This document shows positions 3,270-49,014 of a DNA stretch of 64,000 nt, one piece after another. The position numbers and the translations under genes are program-made. The notes under the pieces are model-generated. The model was not told where the DNA came from. It made no database searches and saw only the letters and a program-made list of their open reading frames with translations. Every line of letters starts with the position of its first letter. Within the stretch, counting starts at the first letter, position 1. This DNA is from a bacterium (GTDB lineage Bacteria > Patescibacteriota > Saccharimonadia > Saccharimonadales > SZUA-47), in contig JAUIBQ010000002.1 in the NCBI GenBank assembly GCA_030427445.1, positions 101 to 64,100 on the forward strand. The letters are read 5' to 3'.

Positions 3270-4432
3270 TACTTTAGATAATCCATAAGTTTACGGGAGT
3301 CTTTATTCTTTTTGAGCTTCATCAGAGCTTTTGCTTCAATCTGCCTAATACGCTCACGTGTGACAGCAAACTCTTGTCCCACCTCTTCGAGTGTGTGTTG
3401 TTTACCATCTTCGAGTCCGAAGCGTAGTCGTAGAATCTTCTGCTCACGATCGCTCAGGCTACCAAGGAGACCTTTCACCTGTTCCTTTAGTAATACGCCT
3501 GTTGCTGATTCTTCTGGAGTTGTCGTGTCCTCGTCTTCGATAAAGTCACCAAGTACAGAATCTTCTTCGTCGTTATGGACACTGGCATCAAGCGAGCTAA
3601 TGTCTTGCTTAATCTTCATAATGTGCTCAACTTTTTCGATGTCCATTTCCATCTCTTCAGCAATCTCTTCGTTGGTCGGCTCACGGTTCAGTTTCTGGGT
3701 GAGGCGGCGCTGAGTCCGTAGAAGTTTGTTGATGGTCTCAACCATGTGCACGGGGATACGAATCGTGCGTGCTTGGTCGGCTATCGCACGGGTAATCGCT
3801 TGGCGAATCCACCATGTCGCGTAGGTTGAAAATTTAAAGCCTTTATCTGGGTCGAACTTTTCTACCGCGCGCAGAAGTCCCGTGTTACCTTCTTGGATTA
3901 GGTCTAGGAGGTCTAAGCCACGACCGACATAACGTTTTGCGATAGACACCACAAGACGCATGTTTGCCTCTGCCATGTGATCTTTTGCCTTCTTGTCACC
4001 TGCTACGACTCGCTTCGCAAGATCTAGCTCTTCTTCTGCGCTGAGAAGAGGGATTTTACCAATTTCACGTAAATACAAACGGACTGAGTCATCAGCTATA
4101 TCATCTAAATATTTCTTATCAGTAGACTCTTTGATAACTTCATCGTCATCACCATCTTCGTCTACCCAGTCATCGTCGGCGTCCTTACCACTCGCACTCT
4201 TTGTCGTAATTTGTAGATTAGCCTCAGCCAGACGCTCGTAAAGTGCATCGAGTGCATCGACGTTGTCGTCATTATCAGGGATTGCGGCGTTGATTTCTTT
4301 CTGATCAATCTTGCCGTCTTTTTTTGCTTGCGCAAACAATGCTTCTGAGTGTTCTTCAACACTCATTGTAGGCTTTTTAGCCTTTCCCTTTTTCTTTACG
4401 GGTTCTTTCTTTGCTTTGTCGTCTTTACTCAC
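3269..4432 (-). CDS. rpoD: RNA polymerase sigma factor RpoD (sigma-70)
   Basis: Regions 2-4 conserved: [48 protein letters not shown]; acidic N-terminal region. Confidence 0.9.
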
Positions 4433-4452
4433 TAAGCGTTCCTTTGCTACAT

Positions 4453-6231
4453 TTAGTCATCAATAGATGTTGAGCGCACGAGCTCTATGATACGTTGACG
4501 CTCTGCGTCGACCGCTCGTACTTTGTTTAATAATTGTTTTTCTTGTTCTTCATCAGCCGTCTCAAACTGATTGAGTAACTGGTCTTTTTGGTATTTTGCA
4601 AACTGTTCTGCCAGTCGGATTGCTATGTTTTGAGCTTGATATAGTTGCTCATGCCTGTCCGTATGCTGGTACGTCTCTTCATAGAGTAGTGCAATCATTT
4701 TACCATAGTCTGTATCTGTTGGAAGAGTACCTGCCTCTTTCTCGAGCTTTTTCTTAACACTCAAGTTTTCTTCAGTCGTGCAAACACTGTCGGAAAATGC
4801 CGGAAGCCACTGACCAGCCACGAGAGTATTTGCACTTGCAATCGCTAGTAAATGCTGGAGAGATTTATCGAGTTTTAGCCTTTGCTCCTCTAGCTCGGTA
4901 GACTGCTGAATGTTGGTTGGTTTTTTACGTTGCGCAGGCTTATTTCCCGGTGACTCAGTAAGCTGCAGTTTTTTATTCAATGATTCAACAGACGTGCCAG
5001 TCTTTTCCGATAATCGGCTGATATAGTGCTCACGCTCAACGGGATCTTCAAGCTTCGTGACGATTTGCAAAATGTCATCTGCAAACGAACGTTTGCCTTG
5101 TGCAGTTTTAAGGTCATAGGACTGCTCTTTTTGCTGAATGAGCCAATCAATCATGTATAGGTTTTCATCGATAACTTTGAGCCATTTATTAGGATCATCT
5201 TTAACAAGCTCATCCGGATCTTTACCCTCAGGAATCGTGATAACACTCATGTCTAGTTTTAGTTTTTGCGCGAGTGGCACAGTGCGCTCAGCAGCAGTCT
5301 GCCCCGCCCTATCACTATCAAACGCGATGCGTATGTCGCCTGTAAAACGTTGCAAATCTTTCAAGTGAAACTCAGTCAATGCAGTCCCAGCAGATGCAAC
5401 GACATTCGCAACTCCTGCTTGGTGGCTTGCGACGACGTCCAGGTTGCCTTCGACGACAACAACAAATCCACTTTTTCTGATAGCCTGTTTTGCCTGCGAA
5501 AACCCATATAGCTGACGACCTTTGTCATACAGAATCGTTGCTGGTGTATTGATGTACTTAGGTGCGTTGTCGTCGCTTTTTAGCAACCTTGCTGTGAATC
5601 CTACAGGTCTGCCTTGGCTATCGCGCAGCGGGATCATTAACCGACCACGGAATAAGTCAAAATACCGTCCATCTCGCTCACCTACTAAGCCGACTTTTTT
5701 AAGCTCTTGCTCCTTAAATCCTTTACTCAAAAGATAGTCCATCAGCGGACTTCCCTTTTCTGGTGAATAACCAAATGCAAAATCGAGAATCGTTTGCTTG
5801 CTAAATTCACGTGTTTTACGTACGTAATCCAACGCCATTGACGACTGCAGTAAAGCTCGTTGATAAAACCGCACTGCTAACTCAACTGCTTCATAGAGCC
5901 GCTCTTTTTCTTGTTTGTTTTTCTGTGAACTACCTGATTGCGTCTTCGAATACTGATCAAGATCGATACCGGATTTACGAGCAAGTAGTTCAAGTGCTCG
6001 TTTAAAATCGACACCCTCTACTTCTTGGATAAAGCTGAACATATCACCACCGCGACCCGAGCTAAAATCATGCCAGATTTGCTTCTCAGGGCTAACGATA
6101 AAACTCGGAGTACGCTCGGTTGTGAAAGGACTCAAACCTTTGAAGTTTCTGCCAGCACGCTTCAGTGCGACATACTCTGACACGACATCTTCGATGTTAA
6201 GCTTCGATTTTATATCCGCAACTGCGTCCAC
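4453..6231 (-). CDS. dnaG: DNA primase DnaG
   Basis: Zinc-ribbon region [30 protein letters not shown], Toprim [12 protein letters not shown]; rpoD-dnaG synteny. Confidence 0.9.
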
Positions 6232-21947: not shown

Positions 21948-21998
21948 GTCTAGTGCCTTCAGCACAAAAGAGCTCGGTTAATCGAGCTCTTTTTAGTT

Positions 21999-22066
21999 AG
22001 CGGAGAGGGTGGGATGTTGGCTCATGACTGAAGCCATGTACGAACCGCATTGCGGGTTCGAACCCA
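21999..22066 (-). pseudogene. Degenerate tRNA fragment (16-bp copy of tRNA-Ser 3' end gcggagagggtgggat plus a T-arm-like gggttcgaaccc)
   Basis: 22000-22015 duplicates 22127-22142; no complete cloverleaf. Confidence 0.4.
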
Positions 22067-22077
22067 CTTTCATACTT

Positions 22078-22121
22078 CGTAAGAAAAGCAAAAAGCCATC
22101 CGTTTGGATGACTTTTTGCTT
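22078..22121 (-). terminator. Rho-independent terminator downstream of tRNA-Ser(TGA)
   Basis: Nested hairpin gcaaaaag..catcc-gttt-ggatg..ctttttgc followed (minus strand) by T-rich run. Confidence 0.5.
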
Positions 22122-22122
22122 C

Positions 22123-22213
<91 letters not shown>

Positions 22214-22242: not shown

Positions 22243-22271
22243 ATTATAACAGAGGTAAATAATAGTTTCAA
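22243..22271 (-). promoter_or_regulatory. Consensus sigma70 promoter (TTGAAA-17-TATAAT) driving tRNA-Ser(TGA)
   Basis: Minus strand: TTGAAActattatttacctctgtTATAAT, ~28 nt upstream of the tRNA 5' end. Confidence 0.6.
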
Positions 22272-22289
22272 CTTATCTTGATGAGGGAT

Positions 22290-22384
22290 GGCCGAAGTAA
22301 ACTTCGGCGAAGCGAACCCTTGGGTTAGAACACATGTTCACCCATCAAATAAAAACAACCGAGACAAGCTCGGTTATATTTATT
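22290..22384 (+). repeat. Conserved ~95-bp tRNA-flanking element, copy X (three hairpins; last hairpin + T/A tracts act as terminator of tRNA-Ser(GCT))
   Basis: ATGGCCGAAGTAAACTTCGGCGA..CGAACCCTTGGGTT.GAACAC..ATCAAATAAAAACAACCGAGACAAGCTCGGTTATATTTATT; ~90% identical to reverse complement of 45291-45390. Produces spurious ORF 22288..22554. Confidence 0.6.
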
Positions 22385-22477
22385 TGGCGGAGAGAGAGGG
22401 ATTCGAACCCTCGCGCCAGGTTGCCCCGACCTACAGCTTTAGCAAAGCCGCCCCTTCAGCCACTTGGGTACCTCTCC
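22385..22477 (-). tRNA. tRNA-Ser (anticodon GCT)
   Basis: Manual fold: anticodon arm cggct-ttgctaa-agctg (one G-U), long variable arm, T-arm gaggg-ttcgaat-ccctc, CCA encoded. Confidence 0.75.
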
Positions 22478-22590
22478 TTTTTTGTCATTGGCTAATGCTG
22501 TATTTTACAGGATTCTCCTCTATATTTAAAGTGTTTAGTGTGTATATTTACTGACAGAAAAAGCATAAGTAATGTACACTGGGTGTAGAT

Positions 22591-23136
22591 ATGGAGCAAA
22601 AAAACCAACCAGAGAGTAATTGGGCATACAACCCTGGACAAGTACATGATTCTTCCTCTGTGAATACTCCAATGCAAAAACAGGCGATTTCTTGGTCCGC
22701 TTCAGAGTACATTTCTCACGAAAAATCACCGATGTGGTATGCATATCTAGCGTCTGGTGCGACAGTACTTTGTGCAGTCGTCTTCTTATTCACGAGGGAC
22801 TGGATTGCCGTCACTGTCGTCGCAGTCACTGTATTACTCCTCGCAATTTATTCCAACCGAACTCCAAGGACTCGCAATTATGTGCTTGATGACAAGGGCT
22901 TACATATCGACAACGAACTTCATCCATTCAGCAAGTTCCGGTCGTTCTCAATCGTCGAAGAAGGCGGTATTAGTAGCATCTGGTTAAAGCCCTTAAAACG
23001 AGTCTCCCCTGTCGTGGTCATTTACTGTGCACCAGATGAAGAGCCAAATATCGTGAATGCTCTTGGAAACTATCTACCGCATGAGCAACGTGAGCTTGAC
23101 CAGATCGACCGCATCAGCAAACAGCTTCGCTTCTAA
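22591..23136 (+). CDS. Hypothetical membrane protein
   Basis: Two TM helices (residues ~50-95); no motif. Confidence 0.4.
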   Translation: MEQKNQPESNWAYNPGQVHDSSSVNTPMQKQAISWSASEYISHEKSPMWYAYLASGATVLCAVVFLFTRDWIAVTVVAVTVLLLAIYSNRTPRTRNYVLDDKGLHIDNELHPFSKFRSFSIVEEGGISSIWLKPLKRVSPVVVIYCAPDEEPNIVNALGNYLPHEQRELDQIDRISKQLRF

Positions 23137-24530: not shown

Positions 24531-24549
24531 TGGTACACCCGGCGCGATT
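24531..24549 (-). repeat. Partial copy (19 bp) of tRNA-Arg 3' end
   Basis: tggtacacccggcgcgatt identical to 24931-24949. Confidence 0.7.
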
Positions 24550-24741
24550 ACTATGTGTGATTCTGCGTAAACTGCGGATGTGCAAGCATCTTTCTTAAAC
24601 CCGGCGGATACATAAAATCCGCCCGTCTGCAAAGCAAGCTTTGCTGGGGGATTTCCGAACGCTGCGTTCGAATCGTGGCTAGATATATCTAGCAAAATTA
24701 ATAACCGCCCTACTTACGTAAGACGGTTTCTAATTTTCCTG

Positions 24742-24762
24742 GTACACCCGGCGCGATTCGCC
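24742..24762 (-). repeat. Partial copy (21 bp) of tRNA-Arg 3' end
   Basis: tggtacacccggcgcgattcg identical to 24931-24951. Confidence 0.7.
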
Positions 24763-24930
24763 CACATTCTGCGAGCCCAGAACTTTCAAGCATGAAGCAA
24801 GTTTCATTGCTGAAAGGTTCTCTTGCGAAATGCCACAGGCATTTCTCACACACGACCTCTTTCCGGTCGTGGTTGAATATCGTCGAGGTGAATTCAAATC
24901 AAAAACCCCTCAAACGAGGGGTTCTAGATT

Positions 24931-25007
24931 TGGTACACCCGGCGCGATTCGAACGCACGACCTCTTGTACCGCAAACAAACGCTCTATCCAGCTGAGCTA
25001 CGGGTGC
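24931..25007 (-). tRNA. tRNA-Arg (anticodon GCG by manual fold; ACG/other not excluded)
   Basis: 77 nt, acceptor gcacccg/cgggtgt, D-arm gctc..gagc, anticodon arm tttgt-ttgcggt-acaag, T-arm gtgcg-ttcgaat-cgcgc, CCA encoded; terminator hairpin cccctc-gttt-gagggg + T5 follows at 24903-24930. Confidence 0.7.
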
Positions 25008-25054: not shown

Positions 25055-25148
25055 GGAGAGGTGGCCGAGTCCGGTTGAAGGCGCACGACTCGAAATCGTG
25101 TAAGCAGTTTTCGCTGTTTCAAGGGTTCAAATCCCTTCCTCTCCGCCA
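25055..25148 (+). tRNA. tRNA-Ser (anticodon CGA)
   Basis: ggagagg...cctctcc acceptor, anticodon arm cacga-ctcgaaa-tcgtg, long variable arm, T-arm aaggg-ttcaaat-ccctt, CCA; TATAAT at 25039-25044. Confidence 0.8.
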
Positions 25149-45027: not shown

Positions 45028-45117
45028 GGAGAGGTGGCCGAGTGGCTTAAGGCGCACGCCTGGAAAGTGTGTTGAGCAGAAATGCTCTCCAGGGTTCAAA
45101 TCCCTGTCTCTCCGCCA
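45028..45117 (+). tRNA. tRNA-Ser (anticodon GGA)
   Basis: Acceptor ggagagg/tctctcc, anticodon arm cacgc-ctggaaa-gtgtg, long variable arm, T-arm caggg-ttcaaat-ccctg, CCA; TATAAT at 45011-45016. Confidence 0.8.
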
Positions 45118-45124
45118 GGAGAAG

Positions 45125-45160
45125 AGCGGTCAAGGTTTTATCCTTGGCCGTTTTTCTCTT
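45125..45160 (+). terminator. Rho-independent terminator after tRNA-Ser(GGA)
   Basis: ggtcaagg-ttttat-ccttggcc followed by gtttttctctt. Confidence 0.65.
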
Positions 45161-45267
45161 CGTGAAAAAGGATTTAAATCATAGGTTCGACAGTTGTCAT
45201 AATCTACCGATTTTACAATTGGTAGCGCATGGTGGAGCTAGAGTAGCTCTACCATACAGCGTCAATC

Positions 45268-45390
45268 CCATCCCTTCCGCCAAATAAATATAACCGAGCT
45301 TGCCTCGGTTTGTTTTTAATTGATTAACAAATTGTGTTCGAACCCAAGGGTTCGTCTCGCCGAAGTTTACTTCGGCCATCTCTTTCTCCG
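45268..45390 (-). repeat. Copy Y of the conserved tRNA-flanking element (inverted relative to copy X), preceded by a degenerate tRNA-Ser 3'-end relic (45268-45290 ...tcaatcccatcccttccgcca)
   Basis: Plus strand: ..ccgcca|aataaatataaccgagcttgcctcggtttgtttttaatt..tgtgttcgaacccaagggttcgtctcgccgaagtttacttcggccat; further tRNA 3' relic tctctttctccgcca at 45391-45405. Spurious ORF 45197..45415 shares the MAEVNFGExNPWVRT / KLGYIYLAE translation with ORF 22288..22554. Confidence 0.6.
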
Positions 45391-45395
45391 CCAAA

Positions 45396-46124
45396 TTAAC
45401 TATTCCCAGCCGCAAACACTACCGCAGATACAGAATTTGCGCCGGCTTTCTTCAGCTCACGACTGCATGCAGATAACGTTGCACCGGTCGTTGCTATGTC
45501 ATCAATAAGCAATATTTTCACGCCGTTTAAGCTTTTAACTCTTCTCATTTTCACACCATTTTCCATCTGAGCAAATCTTTCTTTTCTACTTTTACCAACT
45601 TGTCGAGTATTTGTGGTGCGCTCAAGGAGTGCCTCGGTCGGCAAACCAATCAACTTAGAAAGTTCTTGCGCGATGGTACGTGTATGATCAAACCCGCGCT
45701 CACGTATATGCGGTCTGATGGTTGGAACTGGAACGATAAGGTTAATATCCTGCAATAAATAGGAGTTTTGAGCTAGCAGTAGAGCGAGGGCTTGCGCAAT
45801 CGAAGTAGCAGCCTCTCGCGACCCGTCTTTTTTCATTTTTAACACAAGCTGCTTATGTATTCCGTCATAAGGGCCGGCACTCAAAAGTGTCCGCAAATGA
45901 ATAACTTTTCTACAAGACGAACATGTGCGGTATTCATCCGATACACGTTGGCAGCGGAAGCAACGTGATGGAGGAGGGGATACCACTAATTCAACGCACT
46001 CGTTACATAAACAGGAGCCGAGTCGACCACATCCGAAACAAGCGTTTGGTGCAAGCAAGGACACGACGCTGTCGAGAGACCTGGCTTGTGTTGTTTTAAT
46101 TATGTTGTAGATATCACGGCGCAT
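45396..46124 (-). CDS. comFC: ComF family protein (ComFC-like phosphoribosyltransferase, competence)
   Basis: N-terminal Cys4 zinc finger (CFGCGR..CNEC..), PRTase motif ILLIDDIATTGATL. Confidence 0.75.
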   Translation of the reverse strand: MRRDIYNIIKTTQARSLDSVVSLLAPNACFGCGRLGSCLCNECVELVVSPPPSRCFRCQRVSDEYRTCSSCRKVIHLRTLLSAGPYDGIHKQLVLKMKKDGSREAATSIAQALALLLAQNSYLLQDINLIVPVPTIRPHIRERGFDHTRTIAQELSKLIGLPTEALLERTTNTRQVGKSRKERFAQMENGVKMRRVKSLNGVKILLIDDIATTGATLSACSRELKKAGANSVSAVVFAAGNS

Positions 46125-46914: not shown

Positions 46915-47343
46915 CTAGACGACGTTATCAACGCTGTTCGCTGTACCGAGTACGAATCGAACGATAACTTGCGCTAACGCAACTACTACAAGGCCGATAA
47001 CCGCATAAAGGATGGTGTTCTTAGCACCAGATACGCTGTCTGATGAACCTTGGGAAGTGATGTATTTCACGCCACCTACCATAATCATGACAACAGAAAT
47101 GATACCAATAATCCACGAGAATAGGTTAATCGCATCAATAACTAGTTGGTTAACATTGTTTCGACCTGCGTCAGTCGCTGTGCCACCGCTACAGGTAGCA
47201 TTAAGATTGAGCTGAGACCCTTTACAAAGTCCTTCTTCTGTATTGTTCTGAGCTACAGCAACTGTCACAGGCACAAGTGGTGCGCCGAAGGTAGCAAGGC
47301 TCAAAATCGCGGTCATCATAAATGTTTTAATTTTTTGGATCAT
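46915..47343 (-). CDS. T4SS pilin-like protein, paralog 1 (signal peptide + variable Cys-pair ectodomain + conserved two-helix C-terminal domain)
   Basis: C-terminal IIGIISVVMIMVGGVKYITSQGSSDSVSGAKNTILYAVIGLVVVALAQVIVRFVLG shared by 7 tandem ORFs; VirB2/TrbC-like topology. Confidence 0.6.
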   Translation of the reverse strand: MIQKIKTFMMTAILSLATFGAPLVPVTVAVAQNNTEEGLCKGSQLNLNATCSGGTATDAGRNNVNQLVIDAINLFSWIIGIISVVMIMVGGVKYITSQGSSDSVSGAKNTILYAVIGLVVVALAQVIVRFVLGTANSVDNVV

Positions 47344-47439
47344 TATTATTTTCTCCTTTTATTAGAAAATACCTACATTTTCATGTGTTTACGCACTTAA
47401 GTGTATCTGGTTTTATGAAAAAATTCTAGTGTTTTAGCT

Positions 47440-47886
47440 TCAAGAATTAGCAATGTCTGCAGTAGTGCCGAGTACAAAGCGTACTATCAGTTGTGCTAGT
47501 GCTACTACTACGAGGCCGATGATAGCGTAGAGAATGGTGTTTTTCGCTGCAGTGACATTGCCTGAATCACCCTGAGAAGTGATGTACTTCACACCACCAA
47601 CCATGATCATAACGACTGCGATAATGCCAATCACAAGAGAGAAAAGGTCTATTGCGGTCGCGATAAGTTCTGAAATTTGCTCTTCAGCTATACCAAAATC
47701 TGAACCACAGTCCACAGCGTCTTCGTCTATGTTCGCACCTCGACATAAATTTTCTTGAATGTCCTGCGCTCCGACTTGCGGTGAAAGAAACGGCACAAAT
47801 AGTAGTCCTGTGACCATTAGCACCACAGCCGGGAAGTGTACAATCTTTGATGCGAGAAGCGCGAGTGAATGTGATGAATTAAACAT
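47440..47886 (-). CDS. T4SS pilin-like protein, paralog 2
   Basis: VIGIIAVVMIMVGGVKYITSQGDSGNVTAAKNTILYAIIGLVVVALAQLIVRFVLG; Cys pair LCRGANIDEDAVDC. Confidence 0.6.
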   Translation of the reverse strand: MFNSSHSLALLASKIVHFPAVVLMVTGLLFVPFLSPQVGAQDIQENLCRGANIDEDAVDCGSDFGIAEEQISELIATAIDLFSLVIGIIAVVMIMVGGVKYITSQGDSGNVTAAKNTILYAIIGLVVVALAQLIVRFVLGTTADIANS

Positions 47887-47904
47887 ACTAACCTTTCAAT
47901 TACT

Positions 47905-48312
47905 TTATGCAAAGAATCCGAGGACGAAGCGAACAATGAGCTGTGCAAGTGCGACGACGACGATTCCGATTGCTGCGTATATGATAGCATTCTTTGCTTG
48001 AGAAACCTTCTGTGAGTCTCCTTGAGAGGTGATGTAGCGTAAGCCTGCCAGCATAATCATCAATACTGCGATAATGCCAGCGACAAAAGAAAGTAGGTTT
48101 AGTGCTGATTCAAGTCCATTATCAATAGTTACGTCGTCTGTGTCATCGGTGCATGAAGCATTATTGTCGATAACTCCAAGTGATTCACATGCAGCATCTG
48201 AAGAGTTATTTTGAGCATGTACCAGTTGCGCCGGAAAGAAAAGACTGAATAAAAAGACACCTGTGATAAGAAGCTTGCTAACTGAAGTTAATTTTCTCGT
48301 CATATCGTACAT
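47905..48312 (-). CDS. T4SS pilin-like protein, paralog 3
   Basis: VAGIIAVLMIMLAGLRYITSQGDSQKVSQAKNAIIYAAIGIVVVALAQLIVRFVLG; Cys pair ACESLGVIDNNASC. Confidence 0.6.
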   Translation of the reverse strand: MYDMTRKLTSVSKLLITGVFLFSLFFPAQLVHAQNNSSDAACESLGVIDNNASCTDDTDDVTIDNGLESALNLLSFVAGIIAVLMIMLAGLRYITSQGDSQKVSQAKNAIIYAAIGIVVVALAQLIVRFVLGFFA

Positions 48313-48322
48313 TATAAAACCC

Positions 48323-48727
48323 TTAGTTTATTAGCTCTCCAATAACAACTGAGACGATGGCTTGAGCAAACAGGACAATCACGATACCTATTACAGCATA
48401 TATCATGAGGTTTCTTGCACTGTTAAACTTCTGTGGATCGCCGTCAGACGTCATCATCTGGACACCACCAACAATAATTATAATAACTGCAATAATACCT
48501 GCCACGATTGAGAGGATATTGAAAACACTTCTAAATAAACCGTCCTCACCACTAACGGGGTCTTCTGTGCTCTGTAAATCTTGGCATATCGGTGAACTAG
48601 ATGAGTCATTTCGACACACTTCGTTGATAGCATTACTTTGTGCACCGACCAAGGTAGGCGATAAAGAAATCAGGATAACGAATAGCAAAGCCAGAGTCGA
48701 TAGAGATGTTTTTATGCTCGTTATCAT
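48323..48727 (-). CDS. T4SS pilin-like protein, paralog 4 (more divergent)
   Basis: VAGIIAVIIIIVGGVQMMTSDGDPQKFNSARNLMIYAVIGIVIVLFAQAIV; Cys pair VCRNDSSSSPIC. Confidence 0.55.
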   Translation of the reverse strand: MITSIKTSLSTLALLFVILISLSPTLVGAQSNAINEVCRNDSSSSPICQDLQSTEDPVSGEDGLFRSVFNILSIVAGIIAVIIIIVGGVQMMTSDGDPQKFNSARNLMIYAVIGIVIVLFAQAIVSVVIGELIN

Positions 48728-49014
48728 AGTGCCCCCGCAACAAATCTTATAATTGAAGTTGCAAGTGCAGCAATGATAATTCCGACTATTGCGTATATGA
48801 TTGTATTTCTTGCATTTTTTGTTTTCTGTGGATCACCTTGTGAAGTTATGAAATTAATGCCAGCAACAATAATAACTACAGTCGCAACAGCAACCACCAA
48901 GATAAATACCCACCCCATTATGGTGTCTAAGCCTGCTTCCTGATTTTCATTTTTAGGCAAACCAGTAAGGTCGTCTGGGTTGATATTAATCTGAGAAAGC
49001 TTGTGAAAATACAT
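48724..49014 (-). CDS. T4SS pilin-like protein, paralog 5 (core only; lacks signal peptide and Cys-containing variable domain)
   Basis: VAVATVVIIVAGINFITSQGDPQKTKNARNTIIYAIVGIIIAALATSIIRFVAG; overlaps paralog 4 start by 4 nt. Confidence 0.5.
   Translation of the reverse strand: MYFHKLSQININPDDLTGLPKNENQEAGLDTIMGWVFILVVAVATVVIIVAGINFITSQGDPQKTKNARNTIIYAIVGIIIAALATSIIRFVAGAL

Follow-up and report, generated by a model that had tools for sequence, protein, structure and literature searches.

The stretch analysed here, hereafter the window, is 64,000 nt of a contig from a bacterium of the order Saccharimonadales, and our subject is a short repeated unit, Y, that lies behind serine transfer RNA (tRNA-Ser) genes within it. 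Homologs of two flanking proteins carry names that point to a Saccharibacteria-like (CPR) bacterium. According to ARAGORN and Rfam the window contains five tRNA genes, and the genes around the repeat are ordinary chromosomal ones. We found that 22276-22384 on the minus strand (copy A) and 45283-45393 on the plus strand (copy B) are two exemplars of one unit of about 110 nt. Copy A lies behind tRNA-Ser(GCT), and just past copy B is the comF stop codon (45396-45398). A sequence-only reading of the window had proposed two related inverted copies about 23 kb apart, and the pair is real: when 22270-22400 was searched against the window with blastn, 22287-22391 aligned with the opposite strand of 45276-45380 at 87.7% identity over 106 columns (E 2e-21), this was the only pair, and no third copy of Y was found in the 64 kb. 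The same reading had put the identity at about 90%; the similarity is indeed high, but the measured value is 87-88%. Repeat detection in the window resolved the pair as two inverted blocks, one of 51 nt at 92% and one of 53 nt at 85%. The homology stops within about 140 nt, so Y is not part of a larger segmental duplication, the outcome that had been named as speaking against a separate element. The organism has also been assembled independently (Logan ERR3428546, L003), with a base-identical copy B, which is therefore not an assembly artefact.

Three hairpins had been described for each copy, and all of them are present at the positions in Table 1: GCCGAAG-TAAA-CTTCGGC, CGAACC-CTTG-GGTTCG, which is perfect in B and has one mismatch in A, and AACCGAG-N5-CTCGGTT. 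The core of the element had been located correctly, but the unit is longer than was described, and includes a tRNA tail at its far end. Both copies fold better than dinucleotide shuffles on both strands (z -3.4 to -4.9). The AACCGAG/CTCGGTT hairpin passes the consensus scan for terminators on both strands of both copies, in agreement with the earlier view that it would act as a bidirectional terminator.

Read in the direction of the tRNA, the order of the parts is the same in A (minus strand) and B (plus strand): terminator, spacer, T-arm palindrome, hairpin, and tRNA-Ser tail. Y begins with AATAAATAT, followed by AACCGAG-N5-CTCGGTT and a T run, which form the consensus terminator; it scores on the opposite strand too because of an A tract. 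The stem of the copy A terminator is retained in copy B and in the ortholog of copy A in a 90% relative (L008), and the loop differs in both. The spacer after the terminator is variable. The middle element, GTTCGAACCC-AAG-GGTTCG, had been taken for a plain hairpin, and is actually an inverted T-arm set against a T-arm 5' half; GTTCGAACCC is close to, though not exactly, a T-arm in inverted form (the exact complement of GGGTTCGAATCCC is GGGATTCGAACCC). The same palindrome motif recurs in metagenome units, for example as GTTCGAACCCGTGGGTTCGAC in L140. The hairpin GCCGAAG-TTTA-CTTCGGC is placed where the T-loop would continue past position 58 (58/59), and its region in copy A holds a 24-mer identical in copy B. 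The far end of Y is a copy of the last 16-18 nt of tRNA-Ser with its own CCA, ATCTCTTTCTCCGCCA in B and the decayed ATCCCTCATCAAGA in A. Hairpins are thus subterminal at both ends, the terminator 9 nt from the left end and the last hairpin 1 nt ahead of the tail.

The tRNA-derived parts of Y are the 5' half of the T-arm and the tail only, with neither a D arm nor an anticodon arm, and neither ARAGORN nor Rfam found a tRNA or cloverleaf in 22276-22384 or 45283-45393, even with E values up to 1. At its ends (AATAAATAT... and ...CTCCGCCA) Y lacks the inverted repeats that terminate miniature inverted-repeat transposable elements; the inverted repeats that we found are internal hairpins. The repeat that flanks Y is the tRNA tail, with no target duplication of 2-10 bp. 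A promoter scan found no promoter-like site inside copy A or in the region around copy B. The open reading frames (ORFs) that span the Y units are most likely spurious, because they run antisense through the tRNA gene or relic and because the ORF called across the unit in L003 has no Pfam match, and they should stay unannotated.

Table 1. Positions of the Y copies, the tRNA genes and related features in the window.
Feature	Position	Strand	Remarks
Intact tRNA-Ser(GCT)	22385-22477	-	ARAGORN; Rfam tRNA 50.8 bits; copy A begins one base past its CCA
Copy A part 1, terminator hairpin (22357-22375)	22347-22384		T run on either strand; consensus on both strands
Copy A part 2, inverted T-arm opposite T-arm 5' half, sense GTTCTAACCC-AAG-GGTTCG	22313-22328	-	One mismatch
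Copy A part 3, hairpin GCCGAAG-TTTA-CTTCGGC (sense)	22290-22309	-	Between ...GGTTCG and the tail; hairpin itself 22291-22308
Copy A part 4, decayed tail, sense ATCCCTCATCAAGA	22276-22289	-	Predicted fold pairs the tail with upstream TTGATGGG
Promoter-like TTGAAA-17-TATAAT (11/12, TG)	22243-22271	-	Near-consensus; upstream of tRNA-Ser(TGA), just past copy A
tRNA-Ser(TGA)	22124-22213	-	
Unit W, behind tRNA-Ser(TGA): terminator, GGGTTCGAACCC-GCAATGC-GGTTCG, hairpin, tail ATCCCACCCTCTCCGCTA	21998-22123	-	
Two tandem units behind tRNA-Arg(GCG)	24531-24930	-	Each ends in a perfect copy of the last 18 nt of the gene (24740-24757, 24531-24548)
tRNA-Arg(GCG)	24931-25007	-	
tRNA-Ser(CGA)	25055-25148	+	
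Intact tRNA-Ser(GGA)	45028-45117	+	Differs over its whole length from the ancestral gene in L004 and L007
Unit Z: terminator, GGATTTAAATC-ATA-GGTTCGA and two hairpins; 146 nt	45118-45263	+	Adjoins the relic tail; sequence reading
Relic, last 19 nt of the ancestral tRNA-Ser(GGA), AATCCCATCCCTTCCGCCA	45264-45282	+	Same sequence as the intact L004 gene has at its 3' end
Copy B: terminator 45292-45310, palindrome 45339-45354, hairpin 45359-45376, tail ATCTCTTTCTCCGCCA 45378-45393	45283-45393	+	

The clearest history is that of locus B. Two relatives cover it, L004 with a ComF 90% identical and L007 with a ComF 62% identical, and in both of them the 3' end of tRNA-Ser(GGA), ...GGGTTCAAATCCCATCCCTTCCGCCA, directly adjoins the end of comF with no copy B. 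The gene finishes in ...CCCTTCCGCCA, and aattaactattccc and the end of comF come directly after it, an empty-site junction that we write as CCCTTCCGCCA-AATTAACTATT. In the window the order is the ancestral tail (45264-45282), then the unit as far as ...CTCCGCCA, and then aattaactattccc. The far tail of copy B is of another tRNA-Ser type than the local gene. Copy B was therefore not made in place, since the empty site offers no terminator for a fold-back and the far tail is foreign in type. It is a lineage-specific insertion, which entered after the ancestral tRNA-Ser(GGA) or came with a replaced allele, in the window lineage only. Both copies had been placed immediately behind a tRNA-Ser 3' end; an intact gene does begin at 22385, but beside copy B there is only the 19-nt relic and no whole pseudogene. 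The relic marks a replaced gene, as the tRNA-Ser(GGA) of the window seems to have been replaced and not mutated. About 30 nt upstream of this gene are also unlike the gene of the relatives, and the old tail persists downstream (45028-45263 region).

At locus A, L008 carries an ortholog of copy A, also with a decayed tail. In that genome the order is tRNA-Ser(GCT), a further unit (unit X), a perfect 18-nt tail, and then the copy A ortholog. Unit X was found in L008 alone and is bounded by an 18-nt repeat that copies the tRNA tail perfectly; it has the same architecture as Y at 58-60% identity, with the hairpin GCGAGC-TTTA-GCTCGC. In a distant relative (L014), tRNA-Ser(GCT) and tRNA-Ser(TGA) are 26 nt apart with no unit between them, from which we conclude that copy A is an insertion too; degenerate fragments of CC followed by ATCCCACCC come after tRNA-Ser(TGA) in L014. 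Judged by this distribution, common to L008 and absent from L014, copy A is the older of the two. These comparisons also lend no support to a regulatory cassette between tandem tRNA-Ser genes, since that idea fits the position of copy A alone, L014 has both tRNA genes without a cassette, and copy B lies between the relic and comF. The other proposal, a mobile or duplicated tRNA-Ser gene-end module, holds in so far as Y is an inserted or copied module, but its borders, the tRNA-derived middle part and its generality needed refinement.

We considered a 23-kb inversion between the copies and rejected it, because a single Logan contig of the 90% relative carries both loci, at a distance of about 24.5 kb, and that relative shows collinearity with the window. 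In distant L013, comF, tRNA-Ser(GCT) and a gene for 181 amino acids are adjacent (L013 1820-3576, corresponding to window 22385-23136 and 45396-46124), and these parts are 23 kb apart in the window. Among the compared relatives comF stands beside tRNA-Ser(GCT) only in L013, and tRNA-Ser genes therefore look like rearrangement breakpoints. Three Logan contigs (L009 at position 2, L011 at position 1, and L003 at its end) begin or stop at most 2 bases from the 3' end of tRNA-Ser(GCT) or inside tRNA-Ser(GGA), which fits repeated tails disrupting short-read assembly.

Units of this kind are not limited to Y. Unit W, behind tRNA-Ser(TGA), is conserved in L008, and unit Z lies between the present tRNA-Ser(GGA) and the relic. 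Behind tRNA-Arg(GCG) there are two tandem units, so that the phenomenon is not Ser-specific, and the region holds three perfect 18-mers. The distal Arg unit contains GATTCGAACGC-A-GCGTTCG, which is the T-arm of tRNA-Arg in inverted and direct form. L008 lacks the proximal Arg unit, base-precisely, and L010 lacks the distal one, so the units turn over on the time scale of species divergence. Two ORFs of 55-56 amino acids listed at 24531-24930 overlap the Arg units and are probably not genes. Altogether at least seven units of 110-210 nt, with the same ordered parts, are found at four tRNA genes in the window and L008. They span 95-190 nt between tails and contain no gene.

Based on these observations, we believe, with a probability of roughly 0.6, that Y is a decaying, non-coding module of about 110 nt that accretes at tRNA tails. 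The units sit exactly after the CCA of the tRNA, carry their own terminator and tail, stack in tandem, and come and go with base-precise borders. In the one case of stacking that we saw (unit X in L008), the intact tail is the one nearest to the gene. In the mechanism that we propose, a pre-formed unit would recombine with the shared ...TCCGCCA end of a tRNA gene. Its intermediate, unit plus tail, would probably be a small circle or a single strand, and an excised circle would join ...CTTCGGCCATCTCTTTCTCCGCCA to AATAAATATAACCGAG. The enzyme could be a recombinase acting in trans, or there may be none, with short homology or natural transformation doing the work; we considered transformation because comF is present and nearby pilin paralogs match T4SS_pilin. 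Insertion would keep the tRNA intact and shift older tails downstream, and the inserted units would then decay.

We then scanned JGI metagenomes for a tRNA-Ser tail with CC in place of the T-loop (CCATCCCWCYCTCTCCGCCA), a pattern that is Ser-specific and that forces the CC before the tail. The scan returned at least 120 loci. All of the matches listed are fragments located outside intact tRNAs. For 58 of them an intact tRNA-Ser in the same orientation stands no more than 320 nt upstream (its anticodon being gga in 19, cga in 23, gct in 10 and tga in 6), and another 23 are too near a contig end to judge. The intervening sequence in the listed matches holds a terminator, often an inverted tail and T-arm (TGGCGGAGAGGGTGG...GAGAACCC), GGGTTCGA, one to four G+C-rich hairpins, and the tail. 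Tandem arrays of 2-4 units occur (L101, L086, L118 and L140), and in three loci (L047, L049 and L094) the tail is of a type unlike the upstream tRNA, as in copy B. In a subclass of 22 members, 14 of 31 predicted pairs have double compensatory changes. A covariance model built from these 22 metagenome units alone, with the window excluded, matches unit W over its full length (23.6 bits, E 0.0013) and the L008 ortholog of W (E 0.001). On the Y copies it finds the right strand and borders with weak scores (Y_B 45284-45393, E 0.39; Y_A 22305-22383, E 0.51).

The matches of the tail scan are not all one kind of thing. At six loci (L057, L068, L085, L087, L090 and L111), a conserved ORF on the reverse strand appears to start some 100 nt away from an 18-nt tail of tRNA-Ser, and repeated TTAGCGACA motifs occupy the interval; we read this ORF as a putative integrase gene, and these loci look like classical islands that use the same tail. 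At seven others (L039, L044, L063, L095, L110, L126 and L132), units stand behind a conserved end ...GGACTCGCTCCACCGCCA that receives no call as a tRNA or transfer-messenger RNA (tmRNA); it may be the tail of another tRNA-like gene, perhaps of the tRNA-Sec type. For the GATGAGAACCC...GGGTTCGAC motif we tried several known structures: a hammerhead was rejected by eye, having GAC where the core needs GAA, ARAGORN calls no tmRNA, and a k-turn was tried and rejected as well. Clustering of ORFs for a recurrent neighbour gene near the metagenome units was uninformative, confounded by spurious GC-rich ORFs.

The metagenome units have a link outside these genomes. In the dxs-yajO spacer of E. coli 64A (L154 1500-1582) there is an 84-nt insertion with homology to the hairpin cluster of one such unit, L138, at 76.5% over 85 nt (E 7e-6). 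The insertion sits in a repeat that we take to be an ERIC repeat, it is unannotated, and 651 of 5426 complete E. coli genomes carry it, usually once. Internal insertions in ERIC repeats are reportedly about 70 bp long. In E. coli K-12 (L156) the empty site reads GAACGA^ATGCAG, and the target pentamer CGA^AT recurs in the T-loop (TTCGA^AT). In L034, tandem full-length pseudo-tRNA-Ser copies lie about 550 nt upstream of an intact tRNA-Ser(TGA) (oriented about 4100-4650), and each is interrupted by G+C-rich clusters of hairpins, placed after GGTTGAA in the D-loop and after GGTTCGAA in the T-loop. The E. coli target and these insertions in L034 suggest that the hairpins at position 58/59 may be secondary, site-specific insertions into T-arm copies. 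The Y hairpin of the window is unrelated in sequence to the L138/E. coli cluster. In a plasmid collection one query had no match and the other returned the E. coli ERIC insertion.

Taken further, the window units would belong to a so far undescribed class of structured, strand-specific modules that spans phyla, and within it they would be degenerate and AT-rich. Modules of this class would colonise copies of tRNA 3' ends at T-loop 58/59 (...CGA^AT), stack behind tRNAs, travel as folded single-stranded DNA, and have a hairpin cluster in common with the E. coli ERIC insertion. We put this wider proposal forward tentatively and consider it less likely than not, and more doubtful than a decaying accretion module at the tRNA tails of the window. 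Our literature search found no description of such units, only the general notion of tRNA gene fragments from integrating elements. Two other scans gave matches that we discarded: the 20-mer GGCCGAAGTAAACTTCGGCG matched twice in genome contigs, within a coding region of an unrelated high-GC metagenome-assembled genome and by chance, the window's own species having no match in that collection, and GGCGANNCGAACCCTWGG matched 18 times in viral contigs, in apparently unrelated sequence with no similarity past the pattern.

Several results weigh against accretion by a mobile module. None of the 40 window ORFs tested has an integrase, transposase or other recombinase domain, and 64 kb contain only two copies of Y. 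The identity of Y_A to Y_B (86.9%) exceeds that of Y_A to its L008 ortholog (82.3%) in a mosaic pattern, a likeness that fits intragenomic copying and gene conversion alike, so the two cannot be told apart. Among the three Y copies the palindrome mutates without compensation, and the hairpin is shortened by deletion in L008; in the window lineage selection looks apparent on the terminator alone. The matches of the covariance model to the two Y copies are not significant by themselves. Finally, the allele at locus B may have come whole by homologous replacement from another strain and not by insertion in place, because neither the intact tRNA-Ser(GGA) nor the flank on its promoter side agrees with the sequence of the relatives.

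Of the other explanations, the one that survives best, and which we still regard as unlikely, makes the units scars of integrated islands or prophages: a tyrosine integrase would have duplicated an 18-nt core, and most of the element would then have been deleted, leaving the two ends. The 18-19-nt tails that start in the T-loop agree with it, such tails being typical of att (attachment site) cores as in P4-type islands, and so do the six loci with a putative integrase ORF about 100 nt from the tail. Integrative elements that target tRNA genes make att duplications, and integrase-less, att-flanked derivatives of them exist, such as cis-mobilizable elements that accrete in tandem. The units resemble these in that the direct repeat equals the final 18-19 nt of a tRNA that is left intact, stacking is in tandem, and presence or absence is precise. 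A direct repeat of the att type is found at locus B (the 19-nt ancestral tail 45264-45282 and the tail-like end 45378-45393), at unit X (perfect 18 nt) and at tRNA-Arg (three 18-mers), and an empty site with intact tRNA in L004 and L007 for locus B, in L014 for locus A, and in L008 and L010 for the Arg units. Unlike att islands, the units are just 110-210 nt long and gene-free, there is no integrase in the 64 kb, and they follow a fixed design of terminator, inverted and direct T-arm, and hairpin at 58/59, with covarying hairpins in the wider family. The seven or more units at four tRNA genes, with dozens more in other taxa, share their ordered parts and hold no ORF remnant, and random deletions would not converge on one shared architecture. 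In favour of scars, integrating elements are known to leave partial tRNA genes behind (PMC9897764), and for some of the tails island scars are plausible.

Slightly less probable in our judgment is a non-autonomous single-stranded DNA transposon of the REP or IS200/IS605 (PATE) kind, whose end hairpins would be recognised by an HUH (Y1) transposase encoded elsewhere and which would insert 3' of a short target without duplication. Like REP/BIME/REPIN elements and IS200/IS605-derived PATEs, the units are short, non-coding and built of hairpins with strand-specific loops, and Y has the subterminal hairpins at both ends that such elements require. In the hairpins of the metagenome units, triloops of the GNA type with a closing C-G pair, as found in very stable DNA mini-hairpins, number 135 on the tRNA-sense strand and 11 on the other, and there is no strand bias of RNA folding energy in these units (36 vs 34 units, p 0.46). 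Site-specific insertion without obvious target duplication is seen in the related 84-nt E. coli cluster, with its filled and empty sites at CGA^AT, and the L034 insertions are of the same kind; copy B also starts right after GCCA and finishes in GCCA. However, no Y1, RAYT or TnpA was seen among the window ORFs tested, the two copies of Y in 64 kb compare with dozens for REP and PATE, Y is tied to tRNA 3' ends with a tail, and its loop is TTTA and not GNA. Such a transposon would leave the 16-18-nt tRNA tail and the local type of the T-arm (Arg vs Ser) unexplained.

ERIC repeats offer a related comparison. The ERIC (IRU) repeats of enterobacteria and their internal insertions are treated by Wilson and Sharp (2006), as cited in PMC3184786. 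Y is like ERIC in being an imperfect palindrome with a central hairpin, the cluster in ERIC being inserted just 3' of ...CGA and the L138 cluster being homologous to the E. coli insertion, but Y has a single unrelated hairpin there and no similarity to the ERIC arms, and ERIC is not tied to tRNA genes.

We find it improbable that the units are a functional structured RNA from the tRNA 3' trailer, an acceptor/T-arm mimic with a CCA end that would serve in tRNA processing or as a decoy. The units lie on the sense strand of the tRNA transcription unit and end in CCA, and a closing stem of a 5' segment with the tail is predicted in A and W; in the metagenome class this stem shows covariation and G-U pairs, with pair 55-155 being GU in 12 sequences and AU in 7. 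On the other hand, the unit stands behind a consensus terminator with no promoter-like site around B or inside A, and Rfam 15, searched at gathering and permissive thresholds against the window and 23 metagenome loci, returned only tRNA, SRP, and the weak, tRNA-overlapping sX4 and MH_s15, with no family for Y or for the GC-rich metagenome units. The Y copies also decay without compensation, and units are gained and lost among close relatives. Least probable of all are in-place fold-back replication errors, in which two template switches at the terminator and T-arm hairpins would give a forward-reverse-forward copy of the tRNA 3' end with no mobile unit: the T-arm type does follow the local tRNA, and in L138, L059, L069 and L118 the tail and terminator (about 63 nt) are perfectly duplicated around an inverted copy of tail and T-arm, but the process is excluded for copy B by the empty site in L004 and L007, which lacks a terminator, and by the foreign tail type, and L047, L049 and L094 have mismatches between tail and tRNA. 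The first unit of a lineage may nevertheless originate by fold-back.

Two further features of the window lie apart from the units. Five tandem paralogs of 96-148 amino acids (repeat families D1-D3) at 46915-49014 on the minus strand match T4SS_pilin by the annotation of relatives and adjoin TrbL, PrgI, TraC and VirB4-like genes. Perfect direct repeats occur at 6917-6965/7046-7094 (49 nt, spacing 129 nt) and 1-27/283-309 (27 nt, spacing 282 nt).

Returning to the decaying tRNA-tail module, transcription termination is the sole present function that is supported, through the consensus scan, and it is predicted for tRNA-Ser(GCT) at A and for comF, on the opposite strand, at B. Y resembles bidirectional intrinsic terminators in having AACCGAG/CTCGGTT between an A tract and a T tract, and is unlike a plain terminator in that this part covers about 35 of its 110 nt. 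The shared hairpin is thus a candidate terminator for both genes, and for the window itself the practical point is modest. What the Y units most probably represent is accretion at tRNA 3' ends by gene-free structured units. If they form a coherent class, tRNA 3' ends would be landing pads not only for large islands but also for gene-free modules that bring a terminator and a tail. Such a class would explain many partial-tRNA calls and assembly breaks at tRNA genes, would tie the internal insertions of ERIC to a defined target, CGA^AT, that is contained in the universal T-loop, and would provide a marker of recent rearrangement in reduced genomes such as those of the Saccharibacteria.

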